Source: Vicinamibacteria bacterium (GTDB lineage Bacteria > Acidobacteriota > Vicinamibacteria > Marinacidobacterales > Marinacidobacteraceae). From it: a stretch of DNA of 64,000 bases. Positions 7,648 through 62,732 of the stretch are shown here, piece after piece (positions within the stretch are counted from its first letter, which is position 1; each line of letters begins with the position of its first letter). The DNA is taken from positions 3,456,001 to 3,520,000 of the forward strand of contig CAXXLQ010000004.1 of NCBI GenBank assembly GCA_963668695.2, written 5' to 3'. Below the pieces are notes generated by a model. That model had not been told where the DNA came from, did not search any database, and worked only from the letters and a program-made list of their open reading frames with translations. The translations under genes and the position numbers were made by a program.

Positions 7648-7692
7648 CGGTGCCGGTGTGAACGCCCCCACCGGGAGAACTGGCCGGCGTTC
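7648..7692 (-). repeat. REP-like element (GAACGCCGG family) carrying the 16-bp module
   Basis: Reverse complement matches 33655-33695; GAACGCC...GGCGTTC hairpin. Confidence 0.75.
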
Positions 7693-7733
7693 GCTGACCA
7701 GCGCGCCATCCGCGCTGTCGGCGTCCCGGCGGG

Positions 7734-9131
7734 TCAGACCGTCGTCGTCTTCCAGCCGCCGCGGCGGAAGACCAGGGTGCTGACGGCGGCGGAGAGGGAG
7801 TAGGCGATGGCCACGGCCCAGAATACGCCGTCCACGCCGAGGGCGGTTCGGGAGAGCAGCCACGCCAGTGGGATCTCGAACAGCCAGAAGCAGACGAGGT
7901 CAATCCAGGTCGGAGTCCAGGTGTCTCCGGCTCCGTTGAAGGCTTGCCGGGTAACCATTCCCAAGGCGTAGAAGACGTATCCGTAGCTCACTATGCGGAG
8001 CGCCGTGGCCGCCGTGCGGAGCACCTCGGGCTCGTCCGTGAAGAGCGCTGCGATTTCCGGCGCAAAGACCACGAAGACCCCGGTCACCAGCGCCATGAAC
8101 GCCATGTTCCAGCCGCCGGTGATCCACACCGCACGCTCGGCCCGGTCGGGCTTTCCTGCTCCCAGGTTCTGGCCCACCAGCGTCGAGGCGGCGTTCGAAA
8201 GCCCCCAGCAGGGCAGGATGACGAAGAGCGCGACCCGGATGGCGATAACCCAGCCCGCGACCGCCATGGTTCCGAAACTCGCGATGATGCGGATCAGCAG
8301 GATCCAGGGCAGCATGTCGGCGAGCATCTGTCCGATCCCGCCGACCGACACCCGGCAGAGATTCCTCATGACCGCCCACTGCGTTCGGATGTCTTCCCGC
8401 CGGATGCGTATCCGCGAGCCCCGCGAGAGCACCCAGAACTGGTAGAGCACGCCGGTACCACGGCCGATCGTGGTCGCGACCGCCGCCCCCGGAAGACCCA
8501 GCTCGGGGAACGGCCCCAGCCCGAAGATCAGACACGGATCCAGCACGATATTGATTCCGTTGGCGAGCCAGAGTGACCGCATCGCCGCCTGGGCGTCCCC
8601 GGCGCCCCGCAGGATCGCGTTGTTCAGGAACAGCAGGATGATGGTGGCCATCCCGGCGTACATGATCCGGGCGTGGGTCGTTCCGACGGCGACCGTTTCG
8701 GCGTCCGCGCCCATCAAGGCGAGCACCCGGGGCGCGAAGATCATTCCGACGATCCCGAGCGCCAAAGACACGGCGATTCCAAGGCCGATCGCCTGGACGC
8801 CGGCGCGCGCCGCTCCCCGCCGGTCCCCCTCCCCGTAGCGGCGGGAGACCAGCGCGGTCACCGCGAAGGAGAACCCGATCGCAATCGCGTACACCAGATC
8901 GAGGGCGGTCTCGGTGATCCCGGCAGAGGCAAGCGCCGGCGCCCCCAAACGCGAGATGAACAGGGCGTCCACGACCGCGAAGATCGACTCTCCGACCATT
9001 TCGAGCGCCATCGGCACCGCGAGCACGAACACCACGGGCGTAAGCGGCCCGGAGGTCAGATCGCGGTCCGAACCCCGGAGCGATTCGACCAGCAGCGCGA
9101 GCAGGCGCCGCGTGCGGGATCCCTGCGGCAT
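7734..9131 (-). CDS. MATE family efflux transporter
   Basis: DLTSGPL...LAVPM, NAILRGAGDA, INIVLDPCLIFG, GAAVAT, TLVGQNLGAGKPDRA. Confidence 0.92.
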   Translation of the reverse strand: MPQGSRTRRLLALLVESLRGSDRDLTSGPLTPVVFVLAVPMALEMVGESIFAVVDALFISRLGAPALASAGITETALDLVYAIAIGFSFAVTALVSRRYGEGDRRGAARAGVQAIGLGIAVSLALGIVGMIFAPRVLALMGADAETVAVGTTHARIMYAGMATIILLFLNNAILRGAGDAQAAMRSLWLANGINIVLDPCLIFGLGPFPELGLPGAAVATTIGRGTGVLYQFWVLSRGSRIRIRREDIRTQWAVMRNLCRVSVGGIGQMLADMLPWILLIRIIASFGTMAVAGWVIAIRVALFVILPCWGLSNAASTLVGQNLGAGKPDRAERAVWITGGWNMAFMALVTGVFVVFAPEIAALFTDEPEVLRTAATALRIVSYGYVFYALGMVTRQAFNGAGDTWTPTWIDLVCFWLFEIPLAWLLSRTALGVDGVFWAVAIAYSLSAAVSTLVFRRGGWKTTTV

Positions 9132-9269
9132 GGAGTAGGGCTGCGGCGGTCAGCTACCGCCGTCGGTCCAGGAACCGGCGTCGGAGCAGGGGCGCACGCA
9201 GGAATCGGCGATCAGGAAACTGTGGCGAAAGTTCGCCGGCGTCCGTTCGCGGCACGAAGCCACGGGGTG

Positions 9270-10106
9270 TCAGCCGGGCGGGATCAGCGCCACGATCCGT
9301 ACCGGGGCGCCGGTGCCGGCTTCGATCTTCATCGGCAGCGCGATCAGCAGGAAACCGTCAGACGGAACCCCGGAGAGATCCCCCACATTTTCCAGATTGG
9401 GAATCCCGGCGGCGCCCCCGACCTGGTGGACGATGAAATCCGTGGAGGGCCCGGAGTCCACACTCGCGGTGTCGATTCCAACGAGCCCGACGTCCCGCTC
9501 GACCAACAGCCGCATTGCGTCTTCGGCGAGCCCCGGGAAATGCAGGTTGTCGGCGGTTCCGGGTTCGTCGTCGCCCAGATAGGCGAGGGCGTCCGGCCAA
9601 CGGCTCGCCCACCCGGTGCGGAAGAGCACGGCGGTTCCCGACGGGATCTCACCGTGTTCCACCTCCCAGTCCCGGATATCGTCGGCGCTCGCCCGGTAGT
9701 CGGGGTCGGCGGCTGCCTGCGCGCTCACGTCCACGACCACCCCGGGAGCGATCAGCCGGCCAAGCGGGATCTCGCCGACCAGATCGGCGCCCTCGAAGAA
9801 ATGGTACGGCGCGTCGAGATGCGTCCCGCCGTGTTCGGCGGTGGCGAACTCCTTCATCGCGTAGAAGAAACCCGCCGGGGTCATCCCCTCGGCCAGAGTG
9901 TCGAGCTGGAATCCCTTGGTGTCGGTCGGCCAGTAGAGCGTGTTCTCGCCGTACCCATGACTGAGATCCACCATGCGCCACCCGGCGACGGCCTCCGGGC
10001 CGACTTCTGGACTCAGCGGTGGTGGAGGCTCGGGGGGAGCGCCGCAGGACGCGGCCACCAAGACGGCGACGACGCCGGCAACGGGGGAAAATCGGGCTAA
10101 CATCAA
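9270..10106 (-). CDS. Cyclase family (kynurenine formamidase-like) lipoprotein
   Basis: EHGGTHLDAPYHF, GIDTASVD, PMKIEAGTGAPVR; lipobox VAASC. Confidence 0.9.
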   Translation of the reverse strand: MMLARFSPVAGVVAVLVAASCGAPPEPPPPLSPEVGPEAVAGWRMVDLSHGYGENTLYWPTDTKGFQLDTLAEGMTPAGFFYAMKEFATAEHGGTHLDAPYHFFEGADLVGEIPLGRLIAPGVVVDVSAQAAADPDYRASADDIRDWEVEHGEIPSGTAVLFRTGWASRWPDALAYLGDDEPGTADNLHFPGLAEDAMRLLVERDVGLVGIDTASVDSGPSTDFIVHQVGGAAGIPNLENVGDLSGVPSDGFLLIALPMKIEAGTGAPVRIVALIPPG

Positions 10107-10155
10107 GAAATCCTGCCTGTGCAGGAAATGTTACCCAGCGAGAGGAGTGGGCCGG

Positions 10156-10566
10156 ATGTCCCGAGTTCTCGCGGCGTCCCTGGTCGTGGCCGCTGCCGCA
10201 ACGTTGCTGGCGCCCGGTGAAATCGTGGGATTTCTCGCCGCCGCCGGAGTGACCGCCGCCGTGCTGGCGGTCTGGAGCACCGGTTCGGCGGGGCCCGGGA
10301 ATCCAACCCGGAAGGTTGGTACGCGTCTCGACCGGGCGACCAGCGCGGGACTCGCCGTTTCGCTGGGCGCCGGGTGTCTGCTGGCGGCGGGTATTGCCGA
10401 CGGCCCCTCGCTCTTCGGTCTGCCGCGGTCACTTTGGGGACTGCTGCTCGGAGTGTGGCTGATACCGCTGGTGCTGACGAGCCTCGGCTTCGCGGCCGCC
10501 TTCGAGCCCCCCGACCCGGCCGGCTTGGAACGCCTGGAACGCCTGCGACCCGGAGCACGAGAGTGA
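10156..10566 (+). CDS. Small membrane protein, probable accessory subunit of the sodium:solute symporter
   Basis: About four hydrophobic segments; AGGAG RBS; GTGA overlap with the symporter gene. Confidence 0.65.
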   Translation: MSRVLAASLVVAAAATLLAPGEIVGFLAAAGVTAAVLAVWSTGSAGPGNPTRKVGTRLDRATSAGLAVSLGAGCLLAAGIADGPSLFGLPRSLWGLLLGVWLIPLVLTSLGFAAAFEPPDPAGLERLERLRPGARE

Positions 10567-12014
10567 AGTTGATTCCCGGCCTCTTGTTGCTTGCCACCTT
10601 GGTGGTGGGTCTGGTTGCGATCCGAAAGACCCGTAACACGGCGGACTTCTTCGTCGCGGGACGTCGCCTGGGCGCGTTCCGCGCCGGATTGGCGGTGGCC
10701 GCATCAGCGTTCAGCGGCTTCGTCTTTCTCGGCGGGCCGGGGCTGACCGGTCAGGTCGGCCTCGGTTCCCTGTTCATCGTGGCGCCGGCCGGATTCACCG
10801 CGGCGCTTCTCTGCCGCACGGTGGGGCGACGGCTCGCGCTGATCGCCGCGGCGAGCGGCGCCCAGACGCTGCCGGAGTCCATCGCGTTCCGGTTCGGAGC
10901 CCGGGCTCCGGCGGCGCTGGCCGCGGTCGCGATCCTGGTCGGCAGCGTCATCTATCTCGGGGTTCAACTCTCGGCGCTCGCCCGCGCCACCCGGTTCGTC
11001 TTCCCCGAGGTGGCGCTCGGAACCTGTCTCGCGGTCGGCTTGGGTGTCGTGCTCGCCTACTCGCTGGCCGGCGGAATGGTCGCCTCGGTGAACACCGACG
11101 TGCTGCAGGGAATCGTGATGGCGGTGGCCGCCACGGCGACCTTCTGCTGGGTCATGAGCCAGGTCGGGGGGCCCGCCGGCGTCGGGGAAACCCTGAATGC
11201 CAGGGGACCCGGCGGCAGCAAATTCCTCGAACCGCTGGGCGTGCTGGAGCCGGCGACCGGGTTCGGTTTCCTGCTGCTGTTCTCGGTCGGAACCATCGGG
11301 CAGCCCCATATGCTCCACAAGTTCCTGATGCTCAAGAGCCCGGAGGCGCTCCGCTATCTGCCTGCAGTGATCGGCGGCGCCCAGAGCCTCAGCATCCTCG
11401 TCTGGATCGGCCTCGGGACGGGGGCGATGGTCCTCGCGGGCGGCGTTCCGGCCAGCGCCGCCGGACACCCGGACGAGGCAGCCCTTGCCGTCCTGAACCT
11501 GCCCGGGACTCCCGAACTCCTGGCCGGTCTGGTCGCCGCGGCGGTGCTCGCCGCCATCATGTCCACCAGCGACGCCTTTGTGAACCTGGGGGCGGCCGCT
11601 CTTTGCCGGGATCTCCCCCGCGCTTTCGGCCGGAACGAATTATCCGGCCTCGCCGCGGCCCGCCTCGCGGGTCTGCTCGTGGGGCTCGCGGCGCTGGGGG
11701 TAGCAGCCTGGCACCTCTCCGAAAACGGGCTGATCGCTCGGCTCGGGACACTCGGGTTTGGGGCATTCGCCGCCGCCCTGGCCCCTACCCTGCTGCTCGG
11801 CCTGTGCTGGACCCGGGTGACCGCGCGGGCCGCGACCCTTTCGATGGCGGCGGGACTCGGTTCGCTGTTCGTCCTCGAGAGCCTGCTGCCGGGGCTCGCA
11901 GTCCCGTCAGCGGTGCTCGCGATGGCTGCCGGGTTCGGGGCGCTCGTGGTGACGAGCCTTCTTTCCCGGCGGGCGCCGCTGCCGGAATCCGTGCGCCTGG
12001 CGATGACGCTGTGA
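10563..12014 (+). CDS. Sodium:solute symporter (PutP/PanF-like)
   Basis: DFFVAGRRLG, SAFSGFVFLGGPG, TDVLQG, GQPH, AAIMSTSD. Confidence 0.88.
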   Translation: MKLIPGLLLLATLVVGLVAIRKTRNTADFFVAGRRLGAFRAGLAVAASAFSGFVFLGGPGLTGQVGLGSLFIVAPAGFTAALLCRTVGRRLALIAAASGAQTLPESIAFRFGARAPAALAAVAILVGSVIYLGVQLSALARATRFVFPEVALGTCLAVGLGVVLAYSLAGGMVASVNTDVLQGIVMAVAATATFCWVMSQVGGPAGVGETLNARGPGGSKFLEPLGVLEPATGFGFLLLFSVGTIGQPHMLHKFLMLKSPEALRYLPAVIGGAQSLSILVWIGLGTGAMVLAGGVPASAAGHPDEAALAVLNLPGTPELLAGLVAAAVLAAIMSTSDAFVNLGAAALCRDLPRAFGRNELSGLAAARLAGLLVGLAALGVAAWHLSENGLIARLGTLGFGAFAAALAPTLLLGLCWTRVTARAATLSMAAGLGSLFVLESLLPGLAVPSAVLAMAAGFGALVVTSLLSRRAPLPESVRLAMTL

Positions 12015-13072
12015 CCGGCAGGACGAGTACGCGCTTGCGCATCGCGCTGATTACCGGAGGCTCCACGCCGGAACGCGACGTGGCGCTCGCGGGCGCCGGA
12101 GAAGTTCTCCGCGCGCTGCGGGTCGCGGGACATGAAGTCACGGCGGTGGACACCGTGCACGGCGAACTGGGCCCCGAGCGTGAGGGGGAGTTCCTCGCGC
12201 TCCGGGTGGGCCGCAAGCCGCCGTCGGATCAGGATCTGGCGGCGGCGCGCGAGCGCGAGGACGTCCCCGGCCTGCTTCGGCTGAGGGCCGTGAGCAACGC
12301 GCACCTGGCATTCCTGGTCCTCCACGGACTCGATGGCGAGGGCGGGCTGTTGCAAGCAGTCCTCGAACTCGGCCGATTGCCTTTCACGGGCAGTGGGGTG
12401 CTCGCGAGCGCGCTGGCCATGGAGAAGGCGTCGGCGAAGCGGGTGCTGCAGGGAGCGGGGATCCCAACGCCCCGCTTCGAGATGCTGGAGTTCCAAACGC
12501 CCGACGACCGGCGACGCGAGATCGAGTCACTCGGATCCCCGGTGGTCGTCAAACCTTCGCGAGTCGGATCTTCGGTCGGGCTCCGCATCGCGAACGACTT
12601 CGACGACGTCCGCTCGGCGGTGGAGGAGGCACGCCGGCACGACCGCTGCGTTCTCGTGGAAGAGATGCTTCCGGGTCGCGAATTCACTGTCGGGGTGGTC
12701 GGGGAACCGGACGGGGTCGGCCTCGAACCGCTTGGCGTAGGGGAAATCGTGACGGGCTCCGGCCTCTTCGACTACCACGCCAAGTACACCCCGGGAGTTG
12801 CCGAGGAGATCTTCCCCGCGGACATTCCGGAGCACCTCGCGGCGAAGCTTCGCGACCTGACCGTCGAAACTCATCGGGCGCTCGGCCTGAGGGATTTTTC
12901 GCGGGCGGATTTCCGTCTGGACGCGGCGGGAGAACCTTTCGTGCTCGAGGCGAACACCCTGCCCGGGATGACGACCCGCAGCCTGCTGCCCCAATCGGCG
13001 GCGGTGATGGGGATCAGCTTTCCGGCGCTCTGCGACCGGATCGCGCGGCTCGCCGCTCGCCGCCGGGAGTGA
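12011..13072 (+). CDS. ddl: D-alanine--D-alanine ligase
   Basis: GGSTPERDVAL, LHGLDGEGG, VKPSRVGSSVG, FDYHAKY, EANTLPGMT. Confidence 0.9.
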   Translation: MTGRTSTRLRIALITGGSTPERDVALAGAGEVLRALRVAGHEVTAVDTVHGELGPEREGEFLALRVGRKPPSDQDLAAAREREDVPGLLRLRAVSNAHLAFLVLHGLDGEGGLLQAVLELGRLPFTGSGVLASALAMEKASAKRVLQGAGIPTPRFEMLEFQTPDDRRREIESLGSPVVVKPSRVGSSVGLRIANDFDDVRSAVEEARRHDRCVLVEEMLPGREFTVGVVGEPDGVGLEPLGVGEIVTGSGLFDYHAKYTPGVAEEIFPADIPEHLAAKLRDLTVETHRALGLRDFSRADFRLDAAGEPFVLEANTLPGMTTRSLLPQSAAVMGISFPALCDRIARLAARRRE

Positions 13073-13073
13073 G

Positions 13074-13742
13074 ATGAGAGCTTTCGCCGCACTCGGGTTC
13101 GTCGCCGCCGCGGGCTTGGGCTGCAGCCACTCCGTCGTCGTCAACTCCGTGCCGCCGCCCGAGACCCTGCTTCCCGCGGGCGTGCTGTCCTCTTCTCTCG
13201 GACTCTTCGTGGATGCCGCGCGGGTACCGGAGGAGGTTGTGCTTCAGGACTCCTTCGACAGTCCCATATGCGGCTTCATGCGCTATCCGCTCACGGCTCG
13301 CGACGCGGTCACCCAGTCGGTGGTGGAAGCGATTCGGGCGGTAGCGGACAACATCCGGCTCGTCGATGCCCCGATACATCGCTGGCGTCTCAAGGAGAAC
13401 GGACTCGACGTCGCCGTCGTGGTGCGCGTGGAGGCGTTCGCCATCAGCCTGTCCCCGCTCCGGACAATGGTGGGTATGGATTTCGAGGCGCAAGCCGAAA
13501 TCACCCTCTCGCTCGTCGCCACCACCGAAGATGGGAGCGAAATCCGGAAGACGCTGACGGGGGCGGCCACCTGGAAGGCGGAGGACCGGTGGGGATTCCG
13601 CGGCTGCGGGCTCGGCGCGCTCCCGGCGACCCAGGCGGCGGAGCGCGCGATCCGGCATGCGACGACGCAGCTCGCAGAATGGATCGTCGGGGCTCCCGAA
13701 CTGCGTCCGTCGCTGGAACGCCCGTTGCATGACCGGGGATAG
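13074..13742 (+). CDS. Uncharacterised lipoprotein, paralog 1 of 3
   Basis: Lipobox GLGC; shares LFVDA, YP, GLDxxxVVR and two Cys with the next two genes. Confidence 0.75.
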   Translation: MRAFAALGFVAAAGLGCSHSVVVNSVPPPETLLPAGVLSSSLGLFVDAARVPEEVVLQDSFDSPICGFMRYPLTARDAVTQSVVEAIRAVADNIRLVDAPIHRWRLKENGLDVAVVVRVEAFAISLSPLRTMVGMDFEAQAEITLSLVATTEDGSEIRKTLTGAATWKAEDRWGFRGCGLGALPATQAAERAIRHATTQLAEWIVGAPELRPSLERPLHDRG

Positions 13743-13778
13743 CGGACCGGGTCCTTCCGAGCCGCCAGGAGAAACAGG

Positions 13779-14447
13779 ATGAAGAGGACAATGACGACCC
13801 ACCCGCTTGCCGCGACGGCGATCGCGGGACTAGCCCTGACTGCACTTTCCTGCTCCCAGGCGGTGCTGGTGCGGCCGGCGCCCTCCGCCGAGGCGTTCGC
13901 CTTCGAAGCGCCCCTCCCGGCGGCGGCGGCCGTCTTCGTGGACGCCGACCAGCTCTTCCGGCAGGTCCGGATGACGCCCGACCTGGACGGAGACTCGTTG
14001 TGCGACGACGTCAGCTATCCGGTGGACGCACGCGAAGCGCTGGAGTTGTCGGTCCTCGGCACGCTGGAGCGGCTGGTGCGCAACGTCACGGCGACCGCGG
14101 CCCCGCTGGACCGGCAGGCGATGGAGGCGCGTGGGCTCGACGCCGTCATCGTCGTTCGCGCGGACACCTTCAACGTGGGTCTCAGCAGCGGCGCGTTCCT
14201 GAGCTTCGAAGCGGGCGCCGAACTCACGCTGTCGGTCTCGGTGTTCACCGGCGACGGCCTGCAGTTGCGGGAGGTGGTGTTCGGCAACGCGGTCCAGAAC
14301 CAGAGCGGGATCACCTGCGGCAACGGCGCCAAGGCGCTGGGCGCCGCGGTCGAAATCGCCATCGAGAACGCCATGACCGAGCTCGGCGAACTGATCGCCA
14401 ACTCCCCGGCATTGCGCGACTCCCTGGGTGGTCCGGGCAGCCGGTAG
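13779..14447 (+). CDS. Uncharacterised lipoprotein, paralog 2 of 3
   Basis: Lipobox ALSC; FEAPLPAAAAVFVDADQL shared with paralog 3. Confidence 0.78.
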   Translation: MKRTMTTHPLAATAIAGLALTALSCSQAVLVRPAPSAEAFAFEAPLPAAAAVFVDADQLFRQVRMTPDLDGDSLCDDVSYPVDAREALELSVLGTLERLVRNVTATAAPLDRQAMEARGLDAVIVVRADTFNVGLSSGAFLSFEAGAELTLSVSVFTGDGLQLREVVFGNAVQNQSGITCGNGAKALGAAVEIAIENAMTELGELIANSPALRDSLGGPGSR

Positions 14448-17122: not shown

Positions 17123-17282
17123 TAACAGCCGGTGGTGGAACCCGGGTGAGCGCCGAGAGCGGCCAGTTCTCCTGGTGGGGGCGAGGCCCAGTTCTCCCGG
17201 TGGGGGTCCGGCTGACAAGGCGCGTGAGGGAGGAGCCCCCACCGGGAGAACTGGGCCGCGTGGGTTTCACCACCGGCTGGTA
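17123..17282. mobile_element. MITE-like repeat, copy 1 (TIR TAACAGCC(T/G)GTGGTG(G/A)AACCC), three 16-bp modules
   Basis: Terminal inverted repeats; internal motifs shared with four other loci; lies between convergent genes. Confidence 0.75.
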
Positions 17283-17293
17283 ACCGCGAGCGC

Positions 17294-19251: not shown

Positions 19252-19541
19252 CAACAGCCTGTGGACAAAGTCTCGCGGCCCGGTTCTCCCGGTGGGGGCT
19301 CGGGCGGCGATCCATCCCGGCCAAACAGCCGGTGGTGGAACCCACGCGGCCCAGTTCTCCCGGTGGGGGCTCGGCCGGCGATCCATCCCGGCTGAACCGC
19401 GTCGCTTCGCCCCGCTCATCGTTGCGTTTCGGTCGAATACACCCGGGCCAGTTCTCCCGGTGGGGCTCCTCCCTCGCGCGCCTTGTCAGCCGGGCGCCTC
19501 GCCACTCTCGGCGCTCACCCGGGTTCCACCACAGGCTGTTA
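19252..19541. mobile_element. MITE-like repeat, copy 2 (composite), three 16-bp modules
   Basis: AACAGCCTGTGG...CCACAGGCTGTT ends, with an extra internal end at 19323. Confidence 0.75.
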
Positions 19542-33652: not shown

Positions 33653-33716
33653 GGGAACGCCGGCCAGTTCTCCCGGTGGGGGCTTCACACCGGCATCGCG
33701 GCCCGCAGGGCCGCGG
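33653..33716 (+). repeat. REP-like element (GGGAACGCCGG family) carrying the 16-bp module
   Basis: Matches 44905-44957, 53720-53794 and 62607-62732. Confidence 0.75.
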
Positions 33717-44895: not shown

Positions 44896-44904
44896 CGAGA
44901 CCCC

Positions 44905-44957
44905 GGGAACGCCGGTGTTCACACCGGCATCGCGGCCGGCAGGGCCGCGAAACGCGC
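44905..44957 (+). repeat. REP-like element (GGGAACGCCGG family), empty form without the 16-bp module
   Basis: GGGAACGCCGGTGTTCACACCGGCATCGCGGCC...GGCCGCGAAACGCGC. Confidence 0.7.
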
Positions 44958-51949: not shown

Positions 51950-51980
51950 GCGGCGGCGTATTGTTTCAGGCGGCGCGGGT

Positions 51981-52348
51981 TAACAGCCTGTGGTGGAACC
52001 CGGGTGAGCGCCGAGGCCGGCGAGGCGCCCGGCTGACAAGGCGCGTGAGGGAGGAATACCTGGTGTATTTCGACCGAAACGCAACGATGAGCGGCGCGAA
52101 GCGACGCGGTGAACAGCCGGTGGTGGAACCCACGTGAGCGCCGAGGCCGGGGAGGCGCCCGGCTGACAAGGCGCGTGAGGGAGGAATACCGCGTGTATTC
52201 CGACCGAAACGCAACGATGAGCGGCGCGAAGCGACGCGGTTCAGCCGGGATGGATCGCCGGCCGAACGCCGCGTGGGTTTCATCACCGGTTGTTTGGCCG
52301 GGATGGATCGCCGGCCGAACGCCGCCTGGGTTTCACCACAGGCTGTTA
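51981..52348. mobile_element. MITE-like repeat, copy 3 (internally duplicated); no 16-bp modules
   Basis: TAACAGCCTGTGGTGGAACCC...GGGTTTCACCACAGGCTGTTA; a unit of about 130 bp is repeated in tandem. Confidence 0.78.
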
Positions 52349-53719: not shown

Positions 53720-53794
53720 GACACGCGTTTCGCGGCCCTGGGGGCCGCGGTGCCGGTCTGAAGGCCCCCACCGGGAGAACTGGCCGGCGTTCCC
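53720..53794 (-). repeat. REP-like element (GGGAACGCCGG family) carrying the 16-bp module
   Basis: Reverse complement matches 33653-33716. Confidence 0.72.
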
Positions 53795-54570: not shown

Positions 54571-56048
54571 AAGCGCTTCGAGGCGTCCCGGGGCCAGCGC
54601 TCCACGACGACTTTCGTCTGAGTGTAGAACTCGATCGCGTGCGCGCCCTGCGCGTGCAGGTCTCCGAAGAAGCTGCCGCGCCAGCCGCTGAAGGGGAAAT
54701 ATGCCATCGGGGCGGCCACTCCGACGTTGATCCCCACGTTCCCGGTGAGAACCTCGTGGCGGAAGCGGCGGGCGGCGCGGCCGTCGTTCGTGAAGAGGCA
54801 CGCCATGTTGCCGAACTCGCCGCCGTTCACGAAGGCGACCGCGTCCTCGATGGAGTCCACCCGGATGATGCCGAGCACCGGCCCGAAGATCTCGGTGCGG
54901 GCGATCTCTCCCTCGGCCGGTAGTCCGTCCAGCACCGTCGGACGCACGAAGAAGCCGTCCTCGAGACCCGGGACCCGGGCTCCCCGGCCGTCCACCACCG
55001 CCCGGGCGTCCTCCCGATCCACGGCCTGACCGATCAGCCCTTCGATGCGCTCGCGGCTCTCCTCCCGGATCACCGGACCCATGTCCACCGCCTCGTCGAG
55101 CCCGGAACCCACCACCCGGCTCTCGGCGGCGGCGCTCACCAGGTCCCGGAAGGGTTCATGGGCGCCGCCCACGGTGATCGCCAAAGACGCGGCCAGACAC
55201 CGCTGACCCGCGCACCCGAAGGCGCTCTCGGCGACCGTCCCGACCGCCGCCTCGATGTCGGCGTCTTCGAGCACCACCACCGGGTTCTTGGCCCCGCCCT
55301 GGCATTGGACGCGTTTCCCGTTGCCGGCAGCCTGCGCGTAGACGGCCCGGGCCACCGGAGAAGAGCCGACGAAACTCACCGCGGCGACGTCCGGATGCTC
55401 CAGCAGCGCGGAGACCGCCTCCCGCCCGCCGTGGATGACCTGCACCACCCCAGGGGGGAATCCCGCCTCCGTGAGGAGCTGCGTCACCCACTGCATCGTG
55501 AGCGGCGTCTTCTCGGAAGGCTTCATGACCACCGTGTTGCCGCAGGCGAGCGCGTAGGGCAGAAACCAGAACGGGATCATCGCGGGGAAGTTGAAGGGCG
55601 CGATCACCGCCACCACCCCGACCGGCTGGCGGATCATGAACTCGTCGATCCCGCGGGCGATGTCCTCCAGCACCCGGCCCTGCATCAGCGAGGGGATCCC
55701 GCAGGCCACCTCCACGTTTTCAATGGCCCGCCGCAACTCGCCGCGGGACTCGGCCAGCGTCTTGCCGCACTCGGTGGTCACGACTCTCGAGATTTCCTCG
55801 AAATCGCGCTCGAGGAGGGCCTTCAATCGGAAAAGCGGCTGCACCCGGTCGCCGGGCGGCGTCTCCCGCCACTCGCGAAGCGCGTCCCGGGCGCTCGCCA
55901 CCGCGCGGCCCACATCCTTGGGTCCGGACAGCGGAATCCGGAACAGGATCTCCCCGGTCGCGGGGTTGAGAACCGGCAGGGTCTCGGAGGCCGACGGCGC
56001 GAGATAGCTACCGCCGATAAAGTTGGGCAGGGTCGCGGTTTCGGCCAT
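54567..56048 (-). CDS. mmsA: CoA-acylating methylmalonate-semialdehyde dehydrogenase
   Basis: PFNFPAMIPFW, KPSEK, FVGSS, GGAKN, AFGCAGQRCLA, EIFGPV. Confidence 0.92.
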   Translation of the reverse strand: MAETATLPNFIGGSYLAPSASETLPVLNPATGEILFRIPLSGPKDVGRAVASARDALREWRETPPGDRVQPLFRLKALLERDFEEISRVVTTECGKTLAESRGELRRAIENVEVACGIPSLMQGRVLEDIARGIDEFMIRQPVGVVAVIAPFNFPAMIPFWFLPYALACGNTVVMKPSEKTPLTMQWVTQLLTEAGFPPGVVQVIHGGREAVSALLEHPDVAAVSFVGSSPVARAVYAQAAGNGKRVQCQGGAKNPVVVLEDADIEAAVGTVAESAFGCAGQRCLAASLAITVGGAHEPFRDLVSAAAESRVVGSGLDEAVDMGPVIREESRERIEGLIGQAVDREDARAVVDGRGARVPGLEDGFFVRPTVLDGLPAEGEIARTEIFGPVLGIIRVDSIEDAVAFVNGGEFGNMACLFTNDGRAARRFRHEVLTGNVGINVGVAAPMAYFPFSGWRGSFFGDLHAQGAHAIEFYTQTKVVVERWPRDASKRF

Positions 56049-56078
56049 GTTCGTTCGCGCGTAGGATACGCGCGCGAC

Positions 56079-58421
56079 ATGCTGTGTTTCCCTGTGAATT
56101 CCGGGGGCTTCAGGCGTTTTCGTCTGGCGCTCCTGCCCGGCTGCCTGCTCCTCGCGCCCTTGGCTGCGGGAACCCCCACCCCGCCGAATGAAGGAGCGGT
56201 CCAGGCGCTCGCCGAGGGCATGGAAGGCCCCGTGGTGGACGGGCTGGTGACCGACGAACAGTGGTCTTCGGTCGAACCGTTTACCGACTTCATCCAGCAG
56301 GAACCGGACAACGGGGCCCCGGCCACCGAGCGGACGGAAGTCCGCCTGCTCCTCTCCGAGACCACGCTCTACGTGGGAATCGTCGCCTTCGACAGCGAGC
56401 CCGAACGGGTGCTCGTCTCGGAGAGCCGCCGGGACGGCGACCTCAACGAATCCGACTCCGTCCAGATCGTCCTCGACACCTTCAACGACAGCCAGAACGC
56501 CTTCCTCTTCGGCACGAATCCGGAGGGGATCGAGTACGACGGCCAGATCGCCGGCGAGGGGGCAATCGGCGGTTACAACCCCACCCCCGGCCGGCGGGGC
56601 TCGCAGCGCGGCGGCATCACCGGATTCAACGCCAACTGGGACGGCGACTGGACGGTGCGCTCGCAGCGGAGCGACCGCGGCTGGGAGAGCGAGTTCGCGA
56701 TTCCGCTCCGGACGCTCCGCTACCAGCCCGGGCGGAACCAGACCTGGGGCCTGAACGTGATGCGGAACATCCGCCGCAAGAACGAGCAAGCGTTCCTCGC
56801 CCCCATTCCCCGCGGCTACAACATCTACCGGGTCTCACTGGCGCAGAAGGTCACCGGGCTCAACCTGCCGTCACGGCGGGACATCAAGGTCACCCCGTTC
56901 GCGCTCGGCGAAGCGAGCCGGAACCCGCTCGCGGTCCGCTCCGAGAACCGCGAAACCGAAGGCCTCGACATCGGGCTCGACGTGAAGTGGGGCGTCACCC
57001 CGAACCTCACCGTGGATCTGACCGCGAACACCGACTTCGCCCAGGTGGAGGCGGACGACCAGCAGGTCAACCTGACCCGCTTCCCGCTCTTCTTCCCCGA
57101 AAAGCGGCCCTTCTTCCTCGAAAACGCCTCCACCTTCCAGTTCGGGGCGCCCCAGGAGGTGGACCTCTTCTTCAGCCGCCGGATCGGCCTGAACGCCGGA
57201 CAGCCGGTGGGGATCGTCGGCGGCGCCCGGCTCTCCGGGAAGGTGGGTTCGACGAACATCGGCCTCATGAACATGCAGACCGACGCGGCCTTCAATCGCG
57301 AGACCGGCGCCCTGGCGCTCGCGGCCAACAACGTCATGGTGGCGCGGGTCCAGCGCGAGTTCGGACGGTCCAACATCGGCGGCATCCTGGTCAACCGGCA
57401 GGCCACCGGCGAGTGGGCGGAGCAGGGCGACCACAACCGTGCCTTCGGCGCCGACGCGGCGATCCAGATCGGGGAGCGCGCCCGGTTCTTCACCTTCCTG
57501 GCCAAGACCGCTTCCGCGAACGGGGAGACGGACGGCAGCGCCGGCCGAACGATGGCGGGCAGGGTCTTCCTCAACTATGCCCATCGGGTCCATCAGGGCC
57601 ACATCGGCTTCACCCAGGTGGGAGAGGATTTCAATCCCGAGGTCGGTTTCGTTCCGCGCCGCGGTTTCCGCAAGTACCAGGCGCGCTACTTCTTCGACTG
57701 GCAGCCCACCCAGATCTCCGCCCTTTCCTGGGTTCGCCGCTTTTCGCCGCACGTGACCTGGAACGCCTACTACGGTTTCGACGGCGAGGTCGAGTCGGGA
57801 CGCGGCCACTGGCATCCAATCGAGTTCCAGCCGAATGTGGGGGGCCGCTTCGGGCTGTTCATCGATCGCCACCGGGACCGGCCGCTTCGCGATTTCACCG
57901 TGTACTCCGGGGTGGACGGGAACCGGGTGATGATCCCGCCGGGGCTCTACAACTGGACGCAGGTGAGCGTGAACTGGATCGGGAATGCCAGCGCCCGGCT
58001 CTACCCGACGATCTACTGCCGCACCGGGAGCTTCTACGACGGCACCCGCCGGGGCTGCAACGGCAGCATCAATGGGCGCATCGGGGCCACCTTCCAGGCG
58101 AGCGTCGGTTTTAATCGGGACGTCGTGGAACTGCCGGGAGGCAACTTCACGAGTGACCTGATCCCGATCCGGGTGAACTACTCGTTCACCCCGCTGCGCC
58201 GGCTGGAAGCGCTGATCCAGTACAACAGCCAGACCGCCTCGGTCTCCTCAAACATCCGGCTGGTCATGCTCAACCGGAGCGGAACCGGACTCTTCCTCGT
58301 CTACAACGACCTGCGCAACACCGCCAACTTCGACCGCTTCGACGACGAGACCGGGTTCCTGGTGCCCAACGTGCTGGGCCGGTCGCTCATCATCAAGTAC
58401 ACGCGCCTCTTCGACTTCTAG
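56079..58421 (+). CDS. CBM9-like plus DUF5916 outer-membrane protein
   Basis: PVVDG...W, GWESEFAIPLRTLRY, NTDFAQVEAD, LFFPEKRPFFLE, LFFSRRIG; aromatic C-terminus. Confidence 0.88.
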   Translation: MLCFPVNSGGFRRFRLALLPGCLLLAPLAAGTPTPPNEGAVQALAEGMEGPVVDGLVTDEQWSSVEPFTDFIQQEPDNGAPATERTEVRLLLSETTLYVGIVAFDSEPERVLVSESRRDGDLNESDSVQIVLDTFNDSQNAFLFGTNPEGIEYDGQIAGEGAIGGYNPTPGRRGSQRGGITGFNANWDGDWTVRSQRSDRGWESEFAIPLRTLRYQPGRNQTWGLNVMRNIRRKNEQAFLAPIPRGYNIYRVSLAQKVTGLNLPSRRDIKVTPFALGEASRNPLAVRSENRETEGLDIGLDVKWGVTPNLTVDLTANTDFAQVEADDQQVNLTRFPLFFPEKRPFFLENASTFQFGAPQEVDLFFSRRIGLNAGQPVGIVGGARLSGKVGSTNIGLMNMQTDAAFNRETGALALAANNVMVARVQREFGRSNIGGILVNRQATGEWAEQGDHNRAFGADAAIQIGERARFFTFLAKTASANGETDGSAGRTMAGRVFLNYAHRVHQGHIGFTQVGEDFNPEVGFVPRRGFRKYQARYFFDWQPTQISALSWVRRFSPHVTWNAYYGFDGEVESGRGHWHPIEFQPNVGGRFGLFIDRHRDRPLRDFTVYSGVDGNRVMIPPGLYNWTQVSVNWIGNASARLYPTIYCRTGSFYDGTRRGCNGSINGRIGATFQASVGFNRDVVELPGGNFTSDLIPIRVNYSFTPLRRLEALIQYNSQTASVSSNIRLVMLNRSGTGLFLVYNDLRNTANFDRFDDETGFLVPNVLGRSLIIKYTRLFDF

Positions 58422-58658
58422 GCGCCTGTGGTGGAACCCGGGTGAGCGCCGAGAGCGGCCAGTTCTCCCGGTGGGGGCGAGGCGCCTGCCTGACAAGGCG
58501 CGTGAGGAAGGAATACCGAGTGTATTCCGACCGAAACGCAACGCGGAGCGCCGCAAAGCGCCAGTTCTCCCGGTGGGGGGGCGGTTCAGGCGGGATGGAT
58601 CGCCGCTCGAGCCCCCACCGGGAGAACTGGGCCGCTTGGGTTTCACCACCGGCTGCTA
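58419..58658. mobile_element. MITE-like repeat, copy 4; three 16-bp modules
   Basis: Same TIRs; the left TA is part of the TAG stop of the DUF5916 gene. Confidence 0.75.
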
Positions 58659-58672
58659 GGCGCCGCGGGTCT

Positions 58673-59659
58673 TCACCGCGGCACACCGGGCCACAGCACT
58701 TCGGTCCGGTGGATCGCCTCCCCTACATCGGTCTCCACCAGAATGGTGTGTTGCCCCGGCTCAAAACCCGGCGGTGGGCGGAAGCGCAAGGATAGGCGTG
58801 CGGCGATCGCGCTCCCAAGCGCCGCGATCTCCCGCTGGATGGCTTCGGGGTCGCCGTTCGTCGAGATGACTCCCCCGCCGGTCGCGTTTCCGAGATCGAC
58901 AAGGCCCTGGAAGGGGTTCACACTCCGCATGCCCCCAAGGTCGAGTTCTTCGACCTGCACGAAGCGCCCCTCGTAGTGCCAACGGAGCGCGAAACCGTCG
59001 TCATTGACGAGGTCGTATGCGCCGCGCAGTCGGCCTCCCCCCCGTGCCGCCGCCGGAGCGGTAACGGCGAGCACCATCGGAGCGATGCCGCGGGTCGCGA
59101 TCAGTGGCCACACCTCGTCAGTCCAGCTTGCCCCGTCCTGCCCGTCGGTAAACAGGACAAGAACGGGACGGCCCGCAGCATCCGCCAACAGACCGAGAGC
59201 CACCATCAAAGCGTTGTTCAGGGCTGCCGGACCACCGCTGACCAGTTTGGAGACTGCCTCCGCCGCCTCGGTGCAGGTGCCGTCCCATCCCGCATGCTGG
59301 ATGACGGTTCTCGTGAAGGCGATCACCGCGCAGCGGTCCTTGTCACCGAGCCCCGAAAGGAACTCTTGGAACCCGGTGATGACAGCCTCCAGCCGGTCGC
59401 CCGAGACGGAACTGCTGAGATCCAGCACCGCCGCAACCGCGAGCGGCTCGTCGGGGGACCACTCGAAGGACGCCGACTCGCCGTCCACCAGGAGTCGGAG
59501 CGGCCGCGGATCGTGAAGCGACATGACCTCGCCGTCCCGATGTGCGTAGACCTCGATCCTCACTTCGTCCCCGGCCCCGAACACCTCCTGCGCTCCGACC
59601 GCTATCGGGAACGCCAGGAGTACGGCACCGAGCGCGATCGAGCGTCCGGAGCGCCTCAA
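58673..59659 (-). CDS. VWA-domain protein (acidobacterial type)
   Basis: VLDLSSS MIDAS motif, LVLFTDGQD, ATGG. Confidence 0.82.
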   Translation of the reverse strand: MRRSGRSIALGAVLLAFPIAVGAQEVFGAGDEVRIEVYAHRDGEVMSLHDPRPLRLLVDGESASFEWSPDEPLAVAAVLDLSSSVSGDRLEAVITGFQEFLSGLGDKDRCAVIAFTRTVIQHAGWDGTCTEAAEAVSKLVSGGPAALNNALMVALGLLADAAGRPVLVLFTDGQDGASWTDEVWPLIATRGIAPMVLAVTAPAAARGGGRLRGAYDLVNDDGFALRWHYEGRFVQVEELDLGGMRSVNPFQGLVDLGNATGGGVISTNGDPEAIQREIAALGSAIAARLSLRFRPPPGFEPGQHTILVETDVGEAIHRTEVLWPGVPR

Positions 59660-60669
59660 GGTGGCTCCCCTTCAGTCGACTGTCCCTGAGCTTCCGCCCT
59701 GAGGGATTCGAAGGCCTCGTCCAAATCGCGCGCCGGACCGAGCCAGAACTGCCACTCGGGCTCCCAGCCCACCGCGCGGCGGTCGAGAAGGGTTTTCGCG
59801 GCCTCCGCAGCACCGACATGGTCGCGAAGCGCCATGCGCGCGGCAATGAGGCCGGAGGCCGCCGCCGGCGAGGTGCGGGCGCGCCGCAGCGCGCCGACGA
59901 ACTCGTGTTCGGCGGCCACAAAGTCGCCGTTGTTCAGGGCAGTTTCGCCACGCACCAGATGCACCACGGCGCGAAGCAGCGGCCGCATGCGCGCCCCCTC
60001 CAGCCGCGCGAGCTCGGCCGCCGCTTCCTCCTCTCGACCGAGCCGCACGAGAATACTCGCCAGCCGAACCCGAAGTTCCGCGTCGTCTGGCGTCTCGCGC
60101 AGGACATCGCGAAGCACATCCCCGGCGCGCGCGGTCAGGCGTTCCTCCCCTCGCAGCCGCCCTCCCATATGGAGCACCCGGGCGAGAGCCACCTGCAGAT
60201 CACGATCACCCGGCAGTAGTCCGAGAGCTGAGTCCAGGAACCTTTCCGCGGCCAGCGGGTTGATCGCGTGATGGTAGGAGTAGGCAACGGCCAGCGACCA
60301 GCGGCGCAGCCAGCTCTCGCGGGAAGCTGGATCGGGGATCGCGAGGTTCAGTTTCGTCGCAAGCGCCAGATGCGCCTCCCCGCCGCTGCCGAGTCCGAGA
60401 GCCGCCTCGGTGTGGAGAAGCGCGGCGCGCTTGATTGCAGCGGCCGGCGGGGGTTCCCGGAGAAAATCCGCGACCACGAGTCCCAAAGACTCCGGGCGAT
60501 ACCGGGCGAGTTCCCGCCCCAGGGCCCCGAGCGGTCCACGCTGCGCCTCCTCGATCAACCCACGGTATTCCTCGAGGGTCAGATACCGCTGCGCGAAGGC
60601 GGGTACCGAGAGGAGGAAGCCGGCGCCGCAAAGAAGGAGACACCATCGCGTCCACTTGGTCCTGGCCAT
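59656..60669 (-). CDS. Secreted TPR-repeat protein
   Basis: Signal peptide; AALLHTE; PDDAELRVRLA; TTGA overlap with the VWA gene. Confidence 0.75.
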   Translation of the reverse strand: MARTKWTRWCLLLCGAGFLLSVPAFAQRYLTLEEYRGLIEEAQRGPLGALGRELARYRPESLGLVVADFLREPPPAAAIKRAALLHTEAALGLGSGGEAHLALATKLNLAIPDPASRESWLRRWSLAVAYSYHHAINPLAAERFLDSALGLLPGDRDLQVALARVLHMGGRLRGEERLTARAGDVLRDVLRETPDDAELRVRLASILVRLGREEEAAAELARLEGARMRPLLRAVVHLVRGETALNNGDFVAAEHEFVGALRRARTSPAAASGLIAARMALRDHVGAAEAAKTLLDRRAVGWEPEWQFWLGPARDLDEAFESLRAEAQGQSTEGEPP

Positions 60670-60824
60670 CCCGCACGCCTCCCGCACCGGCAACTAGATC
60701 CTAGCCATCCGGTTCCTGGCGGGCGTGCCCTAGCCGGCGCGCAGTTGGAGGAGCAGACGCGCGCCGCGACCCCGCGCCCGAACGTATCCCCGCAGAGTCA
60801 GCCGGACCGCGTCAGTTCGCGGGG

Positions 60825-61046
60825 TCAGTTCGCGGGGATCTTGTCGAGAATCTCGGCGTTCTCGGGAAAGCGGCCGGTGTCGTACTTGGAGTAGATCAGT
60901 TCGCTGTCCACCTTCACGTCGAAGATGCCCTTGCCGCCTTCGATGAGTTCGGGCTCGATGCCCCGAGCCTCCCGGATTGCCGCCGCCAGACTGGAGGCGC
61001 TAGGGAGGTAATTTCAAACGACGCAGTAGGTGATCGAGATCTTCAT
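60825..61046 (-). CDS. Rdx/SelW-family selenoprotein, 73 aa, CxxU
   Basis: MKISITYCVV-U(TGA at 61014-61016)-NYLPSASSLAAAI...GGKGIFDVKVD..LIYSKY.TGRFP; a hairpin follows the TGA. Confidence 0.9.
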
Positions 61047-61115
61047 GAGAGGCTCACAACTCCGCGGGAAAGGCGCCGGAACGCAACATCCGACAGGGTG
61101 GGGGGGAAGCGATGA

Positions 61116-61193
61116 TGGCGGGGCCGACGGGACTCGAACCCGCGACCTCCGGCGTGACAGGCCGGCGTTCTGGACCAACTGAACTACGACCCC
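61116..61193 (-). tRNA. tRNA-Asp (GTC)
   Basis: GGGGTCGTAGTTCAGTTGGTCCAGAACGCCGGCCTGTCACGCCGGAGGTCGCGGGTTCGAGTCCCGTCGGCCCCGCCA: cloverleaf, TTCGA loop, encoded CCA. Confidence 0.96.
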
Positions 61194-61216
61194 ATCTCTC
61201 GCAAGAGCGCGGATAT

Positions 61217-61885
61217 TAGCAGCCCGTAGACAGGGTGAGCCGGCATTAGACCGCGGATCCACTCCGGCTGACCGTTCCACTGGGCGTTGCGATCCGGTCG
61301 GAATACGCTCGGGATACCTCCCGAATCGCGCCTTGTCAGCCGGGCCCCCACCGGGAGAACTGGCCCCACCGGGAGAACTGGGCCTCCCCACTCTCGATGC
61401 TCGCCTCACTCTGCCCACGGGCCGTTAGCAGCCTGTGGTGAAACCCAGCCGGCCCAGTTCTCCCGGTGGGGGCTCGGCCGGCGATCCATCCCGGCCTGAA
61501 AAGTTCTCCCGGTGGGGGCTCGGCCGGCGATCCATCCCGGCTGAACCGCCGGTATCGTTGCGTTTCGGTCGAAACACCCGGGCCAGTTCTCCCGGTGGGG
61601 GCTCCTCCCTCACGCGCCTTGTCAGCCGGGCGTCTCGCCCCCACCGGGAGAACTGGCCGGCCTCGGCGCTCACCCGGGTTCCACCACAGGCTGTTCACCG
61701 CGTCGCTTCGCGCCGCTCATCGTTGCGTTTCGGTCGAAATACACCCGGGCCAGTTCTCCCGGTGGGGGCTCCTCCCTCACACGCCTTGTCAGCCGGACCC
61801 CCACCGGGAGAACTGGGCCTCGCCCCCACCGGGAGAACTGGCCAACCTCGGCGCTCGCTCGGGTTCCACCACGGGCCGTTAGCAG
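61217..61885. mobile_element. Nested cluster of MITE-like repeats (copy 5); nine 16-bp modules
   Basis: Ends at 61217, 61426, about 61695 and 61881; CCACGGGCCGTTAGCAG repeated at 61415 and 61869. Confidence 0.75.
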
Positions 61886-61977
61886 TCTCCCGCCCGCCCG
61901 GAACAGACCGCTTCCGCCTCCGGGGATCCCGTTCGCTCCGGGGCCAGGCTCTATGGTATTCTTACGGGTCGCGCGCC

Positions 61978-62256
61978 ATGCGGTTGACCAAGAGCCAGGT
62001 CCAATTCCTGGGCTACCGGATTACCGACGACCTGCAGGTCGCCGGCTATATCGATCCGGAAGATCCGAACGCCCTGATGGATACGATCGTGGAACTCATT
62101 ACCGAAGATCTGCACCACGAAGACGATCTCAACGAAGAGGTTCGCAAACTTCTCGACGGTTACGGCGAGGAGATCCGCACCGGCGGCGTCGAGTACCGAG
62201 AAATGTTCAAGCTGGTCAAGAAACGGCTCGCCCGCGAGCAGGGGATGATCCTCTAG
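61978..62256 (+). CDS. DUF507 family protein
   Basis: MRLTK...ITEDL..EDDLNEEVRKLL...VEYREMFKLVKKRLARE. Confidence 0.85.
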   Translation: MRLTKSQVQFLGYRITDDLQVAGYIDPEDPNALMDTIVELITEDLHHEDDLNEEVRKLLDGYGEEIRTGGVEYREMFKLVKKRLAREQGMIL

Positions 62257-62296
62257 GGATGCCGCGGACGCCCGCTGCCTTGCCGAAGACCCAGCC

Positions 62297-62602
62297 ATGC
62301 GCCTGACCAACGGAAAAATCAATCACCTCGCGAACCAGATCATGGATCTGCTCCGCGGCGATGAGTCGGTCGAGTTTTTTGCCGCGGACAACGAGATCCG
62401 CCGCATGATCATGCGGATCATCAACGCCGAACTCGAAGACGACGAGCGCATCGACCAGATCGTGCGCCGCAAGATCGATAGCCAGAGCCGGACCGTGCAG
62501 CAGGGCACCGAGACCTGGGACATCCTCTATCGCCGTTACTACGACGAGGAGATGATCAAGACCCGGCGGGTGATCCCCGGCCAGGAACGCGCTACGGAAT
62601 AA
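62297..62602 (+). CDS. DUF507 family protein (second paralog)
   Basis: MRLT..KINHLA...IDQIVRRKIDSQSR....GTETWDILYRRYYDEE. Confidence 0.85.
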   Translation: MRLTNGKINHLANQIMDLLRGDESVEFFAADNEIRRMIMRIINAELEDDERIDQIVRRKIDSQSRTVQQGTETWDILYRRYYDEEMIKTRRVIPGQERATE

Positions 62603-62606
62603 CGCT

Positions 62607-62732
62607 GGGAACGCCGGCCTTCAGGCCCCCACCGGGAGAACCGGCCGGCAGCGCGGCCCGCCGGCAGCGCGGCCCGCCGGCAAGGAACGCCGGTGTTCAC
62701 ACCGGCATCGCGGCCGCAGGCCGCGAAACGCG
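62607..62732 (+). repeat. Pair of REP-like elements, one filled with the 16-bp module and one empty
   Basis: GGGAACGCCGGCCTTCAGGCC[module]GCCGGC and GGAACGCCGGTGTTCACACCGGCATCGCGGCC. Confidence 0.75.

Follow-up and report, generated by a model that had tools for sequence, protein, structure and literature searches.

An 18- to 22-base repeat module nested at fixed sites within MITE and REP repeats of a Vicinamibacteria bacterium

The window studied here is a 64,000-nucleotide stretch of the main contig, C4, of a Vicinamibacteria bacterium assembly, the genome under study (G000:C4:3456001-3520000; assembly 92% complete, contamination figure 9.3%). It carries many copies of a short sequence, hereafter the module, which lies within two unrelated host repeats, a miniature inverted-repeat transposable element (MITE) and a repetitive extragenic palindromic (REP) hairpin. 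A pattern search of both strands revealed exactly 22 core starts, 17 exact and 5 with one mismatch, and these are the same 22 starts that a first-pass annotation had listed from the sequence. Zero matches are expected by chance, as 0 of 100 dinucleotide shuffles of the window yielded any. The annotation had also seen no copy in a coding sequence, in agreement with our finding that 22 of 22 copies lie outside a crude coding mask based on GC content at third codon positions (GC3). Convergent genes with Pfam matches enclose the module clusters at 17.1-17.3 kb and 19.2-19.5 kb, which fall between their stops; the Pfam-matched genes that flank mask gaps and end just before repeat clusters are an amidohydrolase, a rhodanese, an S24 peptidase and PanE. 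Four open reading frames (ORFs) overlapping modules in these two clusters have no Pfam match, and a fifth module-overlapping ORF (61435-62256) matches DUF507 in residues 182-273 only, downstream of the array.

The genome contains 1,596 module copies at no more than one mismatch (785 forward, 811 reverse), 1,531 of them on C4. The unit had first been described as 16 bp long, but the conserved sequence is longer than this core and reads GCC-CCCACCGGGAG(A/G)ACTG-G(C/G)C. In 1,595 copies, the left flank columns -3 to -1 are GCC (G in 1397, C in 1373 and C in 1579), position +1 is G in 1541, position +2 is C in 960 and G in 629, and position +3 is C. The conserved unit spans 22-23 bases and the net gain per insertion is 18-19. 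The module is an 18-22 base nano-repeat with the 16-mer as its core, and it behaves as a unit separate from its carrier repeats. It has no terminal inverted repeats (TIRs), as stated before, and no target duplication, which excludes a MITE identity for the module itself. A single module is not a palindrome and shows barely any predicted fold (-1.4 kcal/mol). Split halves are rare: 50 left and 17 right halves stand without a partner, many of the listed left halves being one-base deletion variants, versus 1,269 exact whole copies. On these counts, we rejected the idea that the module is a footprint, or the solo ends, of a larger element.

Tandem copies have a period of 18 and comprise 131 doubles plus arrays of 3, 4 and 5 units, and neighbouring copies are separated by regular spacings of 2, 9, 33, 40, 55 or 82 bases. 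There are 290 head-to-head pairs no more than 200 bases apart, 207 of which are at 33 or 40 bases. Two such pairs in the window have predicted folds of -31 to -34 kcal/mol; the modules at 17189 and 17238, for example, form a 16-bp inverted pair of -33 kcal/mol when folded as DNA. The coding mask covers 57.5% of C4, and 76 of 1,595 module copies lie inside it, all 76 in the usual repeat contexts. DNA uptake sequences (or uptake signal sequences) are frequent inside genes as well as between them, and this identity was rejected because the module is excluded from coding sequence. A polar motif of the KOPS (FtsK-orienting polar sequence) or Chi type was rejected as well, since there is no overall replichore polarity and only 4 of 22 context classes give weak signals; an apparent plus-strand run in one relative (G018) was a listing artefact. 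A repeat fraction based on 12-mers was uninformative in this GC-rich genome, flagging 43%. In an Rfam search, the sole match was tRNA.

The first host is about 200 bases long, has the inverted termini GCAGCC(T/G)GTGG... and is bordered by TA at either end; it offers about six fixed module sites. It has the TIRs, the target duplication and the length (within 50-500 bases) of a MITE. One copy, at C4:3541762, faces an empty place in the relative G001, and further copies stand between TA and TA. Over 274 kb of synteny, the majority of G000 MITE copies have no counterpart at the orthologous places in G001, G004 and G008, which points to a recent MITE burst. MITE words are found no more than 130 bases from 1,335 of the 1,531 C4 modules, so hitch-hiking accounts for most of the copy number. 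The MITE can do without the module: G010 has 70 units empty at site S1 and only 20 modules, and in G000 33 MITE copies are empty at all four scored sites. Within one MITE, every combination of occupied sites is found, with positively correlated occupancy. IS630-like elements were considered as parents of the MITE and rejected, as the two examined, out of three DDE_3 places in G000, have other inverted ends and no module. One IS630-like element (L147 930-2070, corresponding to G000:C4:~667054-668194) has ends GTGTGGTGTCC.../...GGACACCACAC, lies between TA and TA, and is flanked by a full MITE and by a mini-MITE consisting only of left end, module and right end.

The left and right flank classes of the module pair almost one to one, giving about seven sites; most copies therefore sit at some seven fixed positions. 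For length comparison, host copies were located by anchors outside the module, and the anchor-to-anchor distance was compared between filled and empty forms. At every measured site, the filled form is longer by 18 or 19 bases per module. At site S1, the empty form GGA-ATA-CCGGG corresponds to GGA-GCC[M]GC-CCGGG when filled (+18, M being the module), and at S2 CGA-ACG-CCGCG corresponds to CGA-GCC[M]GG-CCGCG (+18). Site S3a, empty as CGG-GC-GCCTCG, is filled either as ACC[M]G (+18) or in a double form as GCC[M*]GC[M]G (+36), and S6, empty as CGC-GC-CGCTTT, is filled as CCC[M]G (+18). The remaining two sites gain [M]GCC (+19): S3b, with the empty form CTCGCC-GCT, and the arm of the REP hairpin (S7), with the empty form GGCC-GGC. 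At the +19 sites, GCC both precedes the unit and forms its own end, so that nothing is truly duplicated. Both orientations are found at S3b, whose insertion point GCC^GGC is palindromic, with about 80 listed copies one way and 9 the other among clean-excision contexts. When 19 bases were excised in silico, 184 copies yielded a junction that exists exactly elsewhere; 118 of these, in 43 contexts, have no neighbouring module. The junctions are base-identical in hundreds of copies. The commonest module variant, A12G (172 copies, the next variant having 20), occurs in 35 of 185 contexts in both MITE and REP hosts, is nearly absent from S1 (2/302), S2 (0/295) and S6 (0/58), and is frequent in other genera too.

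In the window, MITE-borne modules begin with a one-mismatch copy at S3b (17164..17179, minus strand) and a single-form ACC[M]G copy at S3a (17189..17204, minus). The following copy (17238..17253, plus) joins the left flank of S1 to the right flank of S2 and represents a module-to-module deletion form. The next cluster consists of a one-mismatch copy at S2 beside the right TIR (19281..19296, minus), a second S2 copy (19352..19367, minus) and a copy at S1 (19449..19464, minus). A composite MITE array at 51967..52348 (plus) has no modules and presents the empty S3, S1 (ATA), S6 and S2 (ACG) forms. Its position 52013 reads GAGGCCGGCGAG, and at that point 61634-61664 holds a module plus GCC, just as the annotation had proposed. 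Farther on, modules occupy S3b (58460..58475, minus), S6 (58562..58577, minus) and S2 (58614..58629, plus). The S6 copy has CCC[M]G in place of GC, which bears out the proposal that a few host bases are replaced at 58556-58588 relative to 52229.

The densest array borders a tRNA gene (61119..61193, minus). In this region (61256-61931), MITE units are piled up, newer units having entered at the TA that ends an older unit, and a second haplotype differs within the units by indels of 9, 9, 25 and 3 bases. The head-to-tail tandem reported at 61347/61365 is present and is a double module of 2 x 18 bases (61347..61380, plus) that occupies S3a in an old MITE. It is followed by a copy at S2 (61455..61470, minus), by a one-mismatch S2 copy clipped by a 25-base deletion that is not found in haplotype contig C3 (61501..61516, minus), and by a copy at S1 (61584..61599, minus). 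The S3b copy at 61640..61655 (plus) is followed by a GCC that is absent from C3. A further S1 copy (61751..61766, minus) precedes a polymorphic S3a copy (61800..61815, plus), whose 18 bases are absent in C3 and in one contig of sequencing run X8, and an S3b copy (61825..61840, plus). Downstream of the array lie two adjacent small genes, one matching DUF507 (61978-62256) and the other a second ORF (62297-62602). RNA run X15 provides an exact 592-base contig over 62044-62635; its contigs are exact over the DUF507 genes, and over the array there are only matches with 6-8 differences.

The second host, REP-A, is a short GC-rich hairpin, GCCGG(T/C)(C/G)-4 bases-...CCGGC, present in hundreds of copies. 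In the window, its 3' arm holds modules at 7667..7682 (plus; filled allele, host at about 7630-7710), 33665..33680 (minus) and 53767..53782 (plus), all at S7. The pre-insertion form of S7 is seen in an empty hairpin pair at 44902..44950 (strand unassigned), which consists of GCCGGTGTTCACACCGGC and a second hairpin; with A for G, it is the empty form of 7648-7692, as had been recognized from position 44907. The hairpin GCCGGCCTTCAGGCC^GGC carries a one-mismatch module in its 3' arm (62628..62643, plus), and 62612-62649 reads GCCGGCCTTCAGGCC[M]GCCGGC, matching the filled hairpin described there earlier. At 62644-62675, a 16-base tandem unit, GCCGGCAGCGCGGCCC, occurs twice; haplotype C3 and contigs from runs X1 and X5 have a single copy.

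The first-pass annotation called this host REP-like. It is indeed a hairpin repeat, but the term understated its nature: the second host is a genuine REP. REP-A is an imperfect palindrome of 20-40 bases, which the module itself is not, and in relatives REP-A arrays flank a gene that reaches 92.9 and 96.3 bits with the model NF047646 (REP-associated tyrosine transposase, RAYT; cut-off 80 bits). Such a RAYT gene flanked by REP-A was found in G010, G001 and G014. In G010 (L212, G010:C1:750000-753500), six REP-A copies lie upstream of the gene and at least 11 lie downstream in the opposite orientation. Opposite orientations of the two arrays are common to the three RAYT loci L212, L210 and L211, and in G014 one flanking REP carries an A12G module. 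The REP arrays also yield long spurious ORFs with repetitive translations (L212 1079-2595, minus strand), which gene callers may annotate as proteins. No RAYT was found in G004. In the module-poor genomes of the genus, the few modules present are mostly in REP-A.

Module orientation within REP-A, counted with two exact patterns, is nearly invariant. In 77 cases, the module comes after arm, loop and a further 3-4 bases, its 5' end facing the loop, and the single module of opposite orientation lies beyond its hairpin. Both strand versions of the hairpin, with TGAA and TTCA loops, are used, so both arms are hit under one rule. IS110 was rejected as a driver of insertion, as G000 has a single element of this family, which has landed in a REP-like hairpin rather than a module. 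This element (C4:~482100-483700) interrupts the hairpin between GTGCCGACCGGAGGTC and CGGCGTTCCC; G004, G008 and G014 have 10-11 IS110-family matches each.

Filled and empty alleles still coexist in nature. The small contigs C1 (144 kb), C3 (31 kb) and C2 (5.8 kb) are second haplotypes or strain variants of C4 at 92-99.9% identity (97.6-99.9% for C1 and C3), corresponding to C4:304184-421223, C4:3505137-3538141 and C4:3408655-3412554, respectively, which fits the contamination figure of the assembly and supplies material for comparing populations. Between C1 or C3 and C4, S1 is empty versus filled in two adjacent units. C3 differs from C4 at S3a (empty versus filled at window position 61800) and in the GCC beside a module at 61656, and the haplotype contigs also show one versus two tandem units and a deletion between S1 and S2 modules. 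In an orthologous MITE, S1 is filled in G001 and empty in G000. One contig of the independent run X8 lacks the 18 bases at 61799-61818. The S1 toggle between C3 and C4 has no adjacent SNPs (single-nucleotide polymorphisms). Per-position variation is 0-0.01 in module columns and 0-0.6 in host columns. Linkage of the S1 state to host polymorphisms is weak, with a Cramer's V of 0.36 at two bases and no more than 0.26 elsewhere; larger values upstream reflect the occupancy of S3.

The motif is present in 15 of 15 genus genomes, with copy numbers spanning a 150-fold range within the genus and extending from 0 to about 1,600 over the family, and was not above chance outside the family among 16 order-level genomes searched. 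The module is specific to one family of Vicinamibacteria-like Acidobacteriota, the relatives carrying it being labelled Acidobacteria, Vicinamibacteria or Candidatus Marinacidobacterium. In other genera, the exact 16-mer is kept in other contexts with different host sequence. In one other-genus relative (L012, L013, L024 and L046), the 3' half of the module is often partially repeated behind it, as GCC GGGAGAACTG G, and the S2 point holds a diverged form, CCTACCGGGAGAACCG, suggesting older insertions.

The polarity of the alleles can be read at some sites. A search for the empty S1 form was positive in 13 of 13 genomes of the genus and in 3 of the 6 other genera covered. The filled form occurs within the genus only in G000 (237), G001 (90), G004 (115) and G008 (62), and at one long locus the last three are the nearest relatives of G000, with 97, 92 and 89% DNA identity versus about 84% for the rest. 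Toggles were polarised with G004 and G008, and few loci had reached anchors or a shared MITE. One that did is the old diverged MITE by the tRNA gene, which is present in both G000 haplotypes, G001 and G004, and missing in G008. At the position orthologous to 61347-61380, G004 is empty and reads CAGCCGGGC^GCCTCCCC, and G000 and G001 carry two units there, exactly 36 bases in total. All of them share identical, locally diverged flanks, untouched 5 bases away. The sequence comparison thus supports the view that the filled state is derived wherever polarity is readable, and that the module was probably gained at two sites, S1 as a class and the old MITE at 61347-61380.

We lean towards a course in which rare oriented insertion of a separate unit was followed by hitch-hiking on the MITE and then by conversion among copies. 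A trans-acting activity would insert the unit rarely, precisely and in a set orientation at GCC^GGC or GC^(C/G) points of hairpin-forming repeats. The best guess for this activity is a single-strand, hairpin-guided cut-and-join reaction of the HUH/RAYT type, or template switching at hairpins; the +19 events would fit a cut after GCC with a unit itself ending in GCC, as in HUH-type single-strand transposition. Massive multiplication would come from riding on MITE bursts. Short-tract conversion would then shuffle filled and empty alleles among MITE copies, along with module-to-module deletions and changes in tandem copy number. The earlier proposal that a fixed oligonucleotide was written into several sites is upheld in part. 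Two host repeats with several distinct sites and with empty and filled alleles are confirmed, empty S1 is widespread and there is one clean orthologous gain; but separate insertion accounts for only a minority of the 1,596 copies, as they occupy about seven sites and most MITEs are lineage-specific arrivals that carried their modules along. A bolder version, which we regard as improbable, takes the module for the smallest transposable unit so far encountered: a single strand of 19 bases that a trans-acting, hairpin-reading enzyme, either a RAYT-like HUH nuclease or an undescribed one, would pick up and paste after GCC in 3' hairpin arms. If this were true, the module would be a third-order parasite inside REPs and MITEs, which are themselves parasites of transposases.

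Several findings weigh against dedicated insertion, and many of them are what would be expected if an old internal motif of the MITE or REP had spread without any, through gene conversion between homeologous copies or through template switching during replication, in either case among copies with like flanks. This alternative is less probable than insertion in our judgement, and it deserves serious attention. No module copy was found in unique DNA, the 115 singleton contexts being REP or MITE host variants, so that spread among repeats may have been homology-driven. The filled allele replaces 2-3 host bases at four sites, like a copied patch, which simple transposition does not explain. Read by eye, the empty-form flanks of S1 and S2 are alike, their right flanks agreeing in 10 of the initial 13 bases, and those of S3b resemble those of S6. 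One S1/S2 hybrid junction (C4:2387019) and eight copies with module-to-module deletions were found, and two of the empty/filled toggles have extra adjacent SNPs, as a conversion tract would leave. Donors for conversion are always available, because both S1 states are abundant on C4 (228 filled, 226 empty). Other reservations concern the polarity and the enzyme. The outgroup order rests on DNA identity at one locus, one clean polarised gain was seen in 274 kb compared, and in G020, of a distant genus, the S1 point of one MITE copy is occupied by a module, so that S1 filling is not strictly limited to the four-species clade. No enzyme is tied to module insertion; neither a Y1 transposase nor a RAYT was found in G000, which argues against both as drivers there (RAYT being sought by hidden Markov model search and by tblastn, best E 0.28, in an assembly 92% complete), and RAYT counts do not track module counts across the genus. 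Conversion alone, however, sits poorly with base-exact junctions in hundreds of copies and near-zero linkage to host variants 4-10 bases off. It also sits poorly with the 36-base gain at 61347-61380, which spared diverged flanks 5 bases away. Beyond the immediate junction (GCC^GGC or GC^CG), REP arms and MITE sites have little in common, yet the REP arms show the same junction and a 77:1 orientation, and the module remains exact across genera while the host sequence differs.

Retention of the module for a function, as a putative protein-binding site (for the MITE transposase, a nucleoid protein or a regulator) or as a strong DNA or RNA stem in inverted pairs, is rather unlikely, and it concerns persistence, not movement, so that it is compatible with either insertion or conversion. 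The exact 16-mer in different genera would suit such a role, as would the low variation of the module relative to most host columns, the 290 head-to-head pairs with their strong predicted folds and the positive correlation of site occupancy within one MITE. The module is nevertheless dispensable to the MITE, as the G010 units and the fully empty G000 copies show; the two IS630-like elements examined lack the module, and no Rfam family match or replichore polarity points to a role. The first-pass annotation had considered a product made by a reverse transcriptase or primase. The fixed sequence, the tandem period of 18 and the lack of TIRs would agree with a short cDNA or a primase product that was copied from a single template and ligated into breaks in hairpin repeats. 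We consider this origin very unlikely: RVT_1, the reverse transcriptase profile, matched in none of five genomes (G000, G004, G008, G010 and G014), although the same search was positive in 3 of 14 control genomes, and no lone source copy beside a reverse transcriptase-type gene was seen (the search did not extend to primase-polymerase, Ku or LigD). The same result led us to reject an insert derived from a retroelement (retron, group II intron or diversity-generating retroelement), and we infer that the inserting activity is not a reverse transcriptase. Finally, an artefact of assembly or polishing, which had been raised at the outset, has a negligible probability. The motif occurs in all 15 genus genomes in contigs from several assemblers, in short- and long-read assemblies alike, and contigs of independent runs cover module stretches exactly when compared, e.g., 61367-61471 in X1 and X5. 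The runs containing the stretch come from 9 studies and include sponge metagenomes.

The literature searched yielded no paper on the genus Marinacidobacterium, and work on intergenic MITEs of acidobacteria was off-subject by its titles and the start of its abstracts. The annotation's remark that no element like this had been described does not stand, as small dispersed repeats (SDRs) of Nostocaceae were described in 2008, to go by later papers that mention them. Elhai et al. 2008 reportedly defined SDR1-8 in Nostoc and Anabaena. These repeats are said to be about 21-27 bases long, highly repeated, dispersed and intergenic, and to occur inside other repeats, inside their own copies or in tandem; three families, SDR4-6, are said to share a hairpin. 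In citing papers, the SDRs of Nostocaceae are about 20 bases long and possibly mobile, SDR5 is found inserted in the octamer HIP1 (highly iterated palindrome 1), and HIP1-enriched cyanobacterial genomes outside Nostocaceae are reported to have no SDR-like repeat (PMC3116915, PMC5861425, PMC2884548). By these descriptions, the SDRs and the module have in common a length of about 20 bases, a high copy number, an intergenic location, tandem or nested copies, and nesting in other repeats, which for SDRs include small transposons and a short palindrome that serves as an insertion site. In both, presence or absence at orthologous places suggests mobility. The two are likened by description, not by sequence, and belong to different phyla. 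The module alone barely folds, whereas three SDR families are said to share a hairpin, and one of the module's hosts is a REP with a RAYT gene in relatives. The SDRs are the closest precedent, and the module represents a second system, in a remote phylum.

Other known systems resemble the module in part. As in REP/REPIN-RAYT systems, the REP-A host is a GC-rich hairpin that flanks a RAYT gene in relatives, and the strict orientation of module to hairpin is as expected of a single-strand, hairpin-reading enzyme. The module, however, is no palindrome, and G000, the genome richest in modules, has no detected RAYT; we know of no RAYT that inserts a foreign 19-mer into a REP arm. The bacterial interspersed mosaic elements (BIMEs) of E. 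coli and the pneumococcal BOX elements also consist of a few short modules, variable in number and orientation, in intergenic arrays. Their modules are parts of one element without empty and filled alleles, whereas here the module interrupts two unrelated hosts. The 'peel and paste' transposition of IS200/IS605 elements resembles the +19 sites, where the module follows a fixed target GCC in a strand-specific manner relative to the hairpin. It differs in that the module has 19 bases and no subterminal hairpins, that no Y1 transposase was found in G000, and that the +18 sites replace host bases.

In practical terms, the system affects annotation through hundreds of strong inverted pairs, spurious ORFs, broken short-read assemblies and intergenic indels. 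The question of how sequences some 20 bases long come to spread as units goes back to the 2008 description of the cyanobacterial SDRs. The acidobacterial system offers exact junction rules, a strict orientation in the REP, a RAYT in some relatives only and a 150-fold range of copy number, and its alleles still segregate in natural sponge-associated populations; together, these handles allow comparative and biochemical tests.

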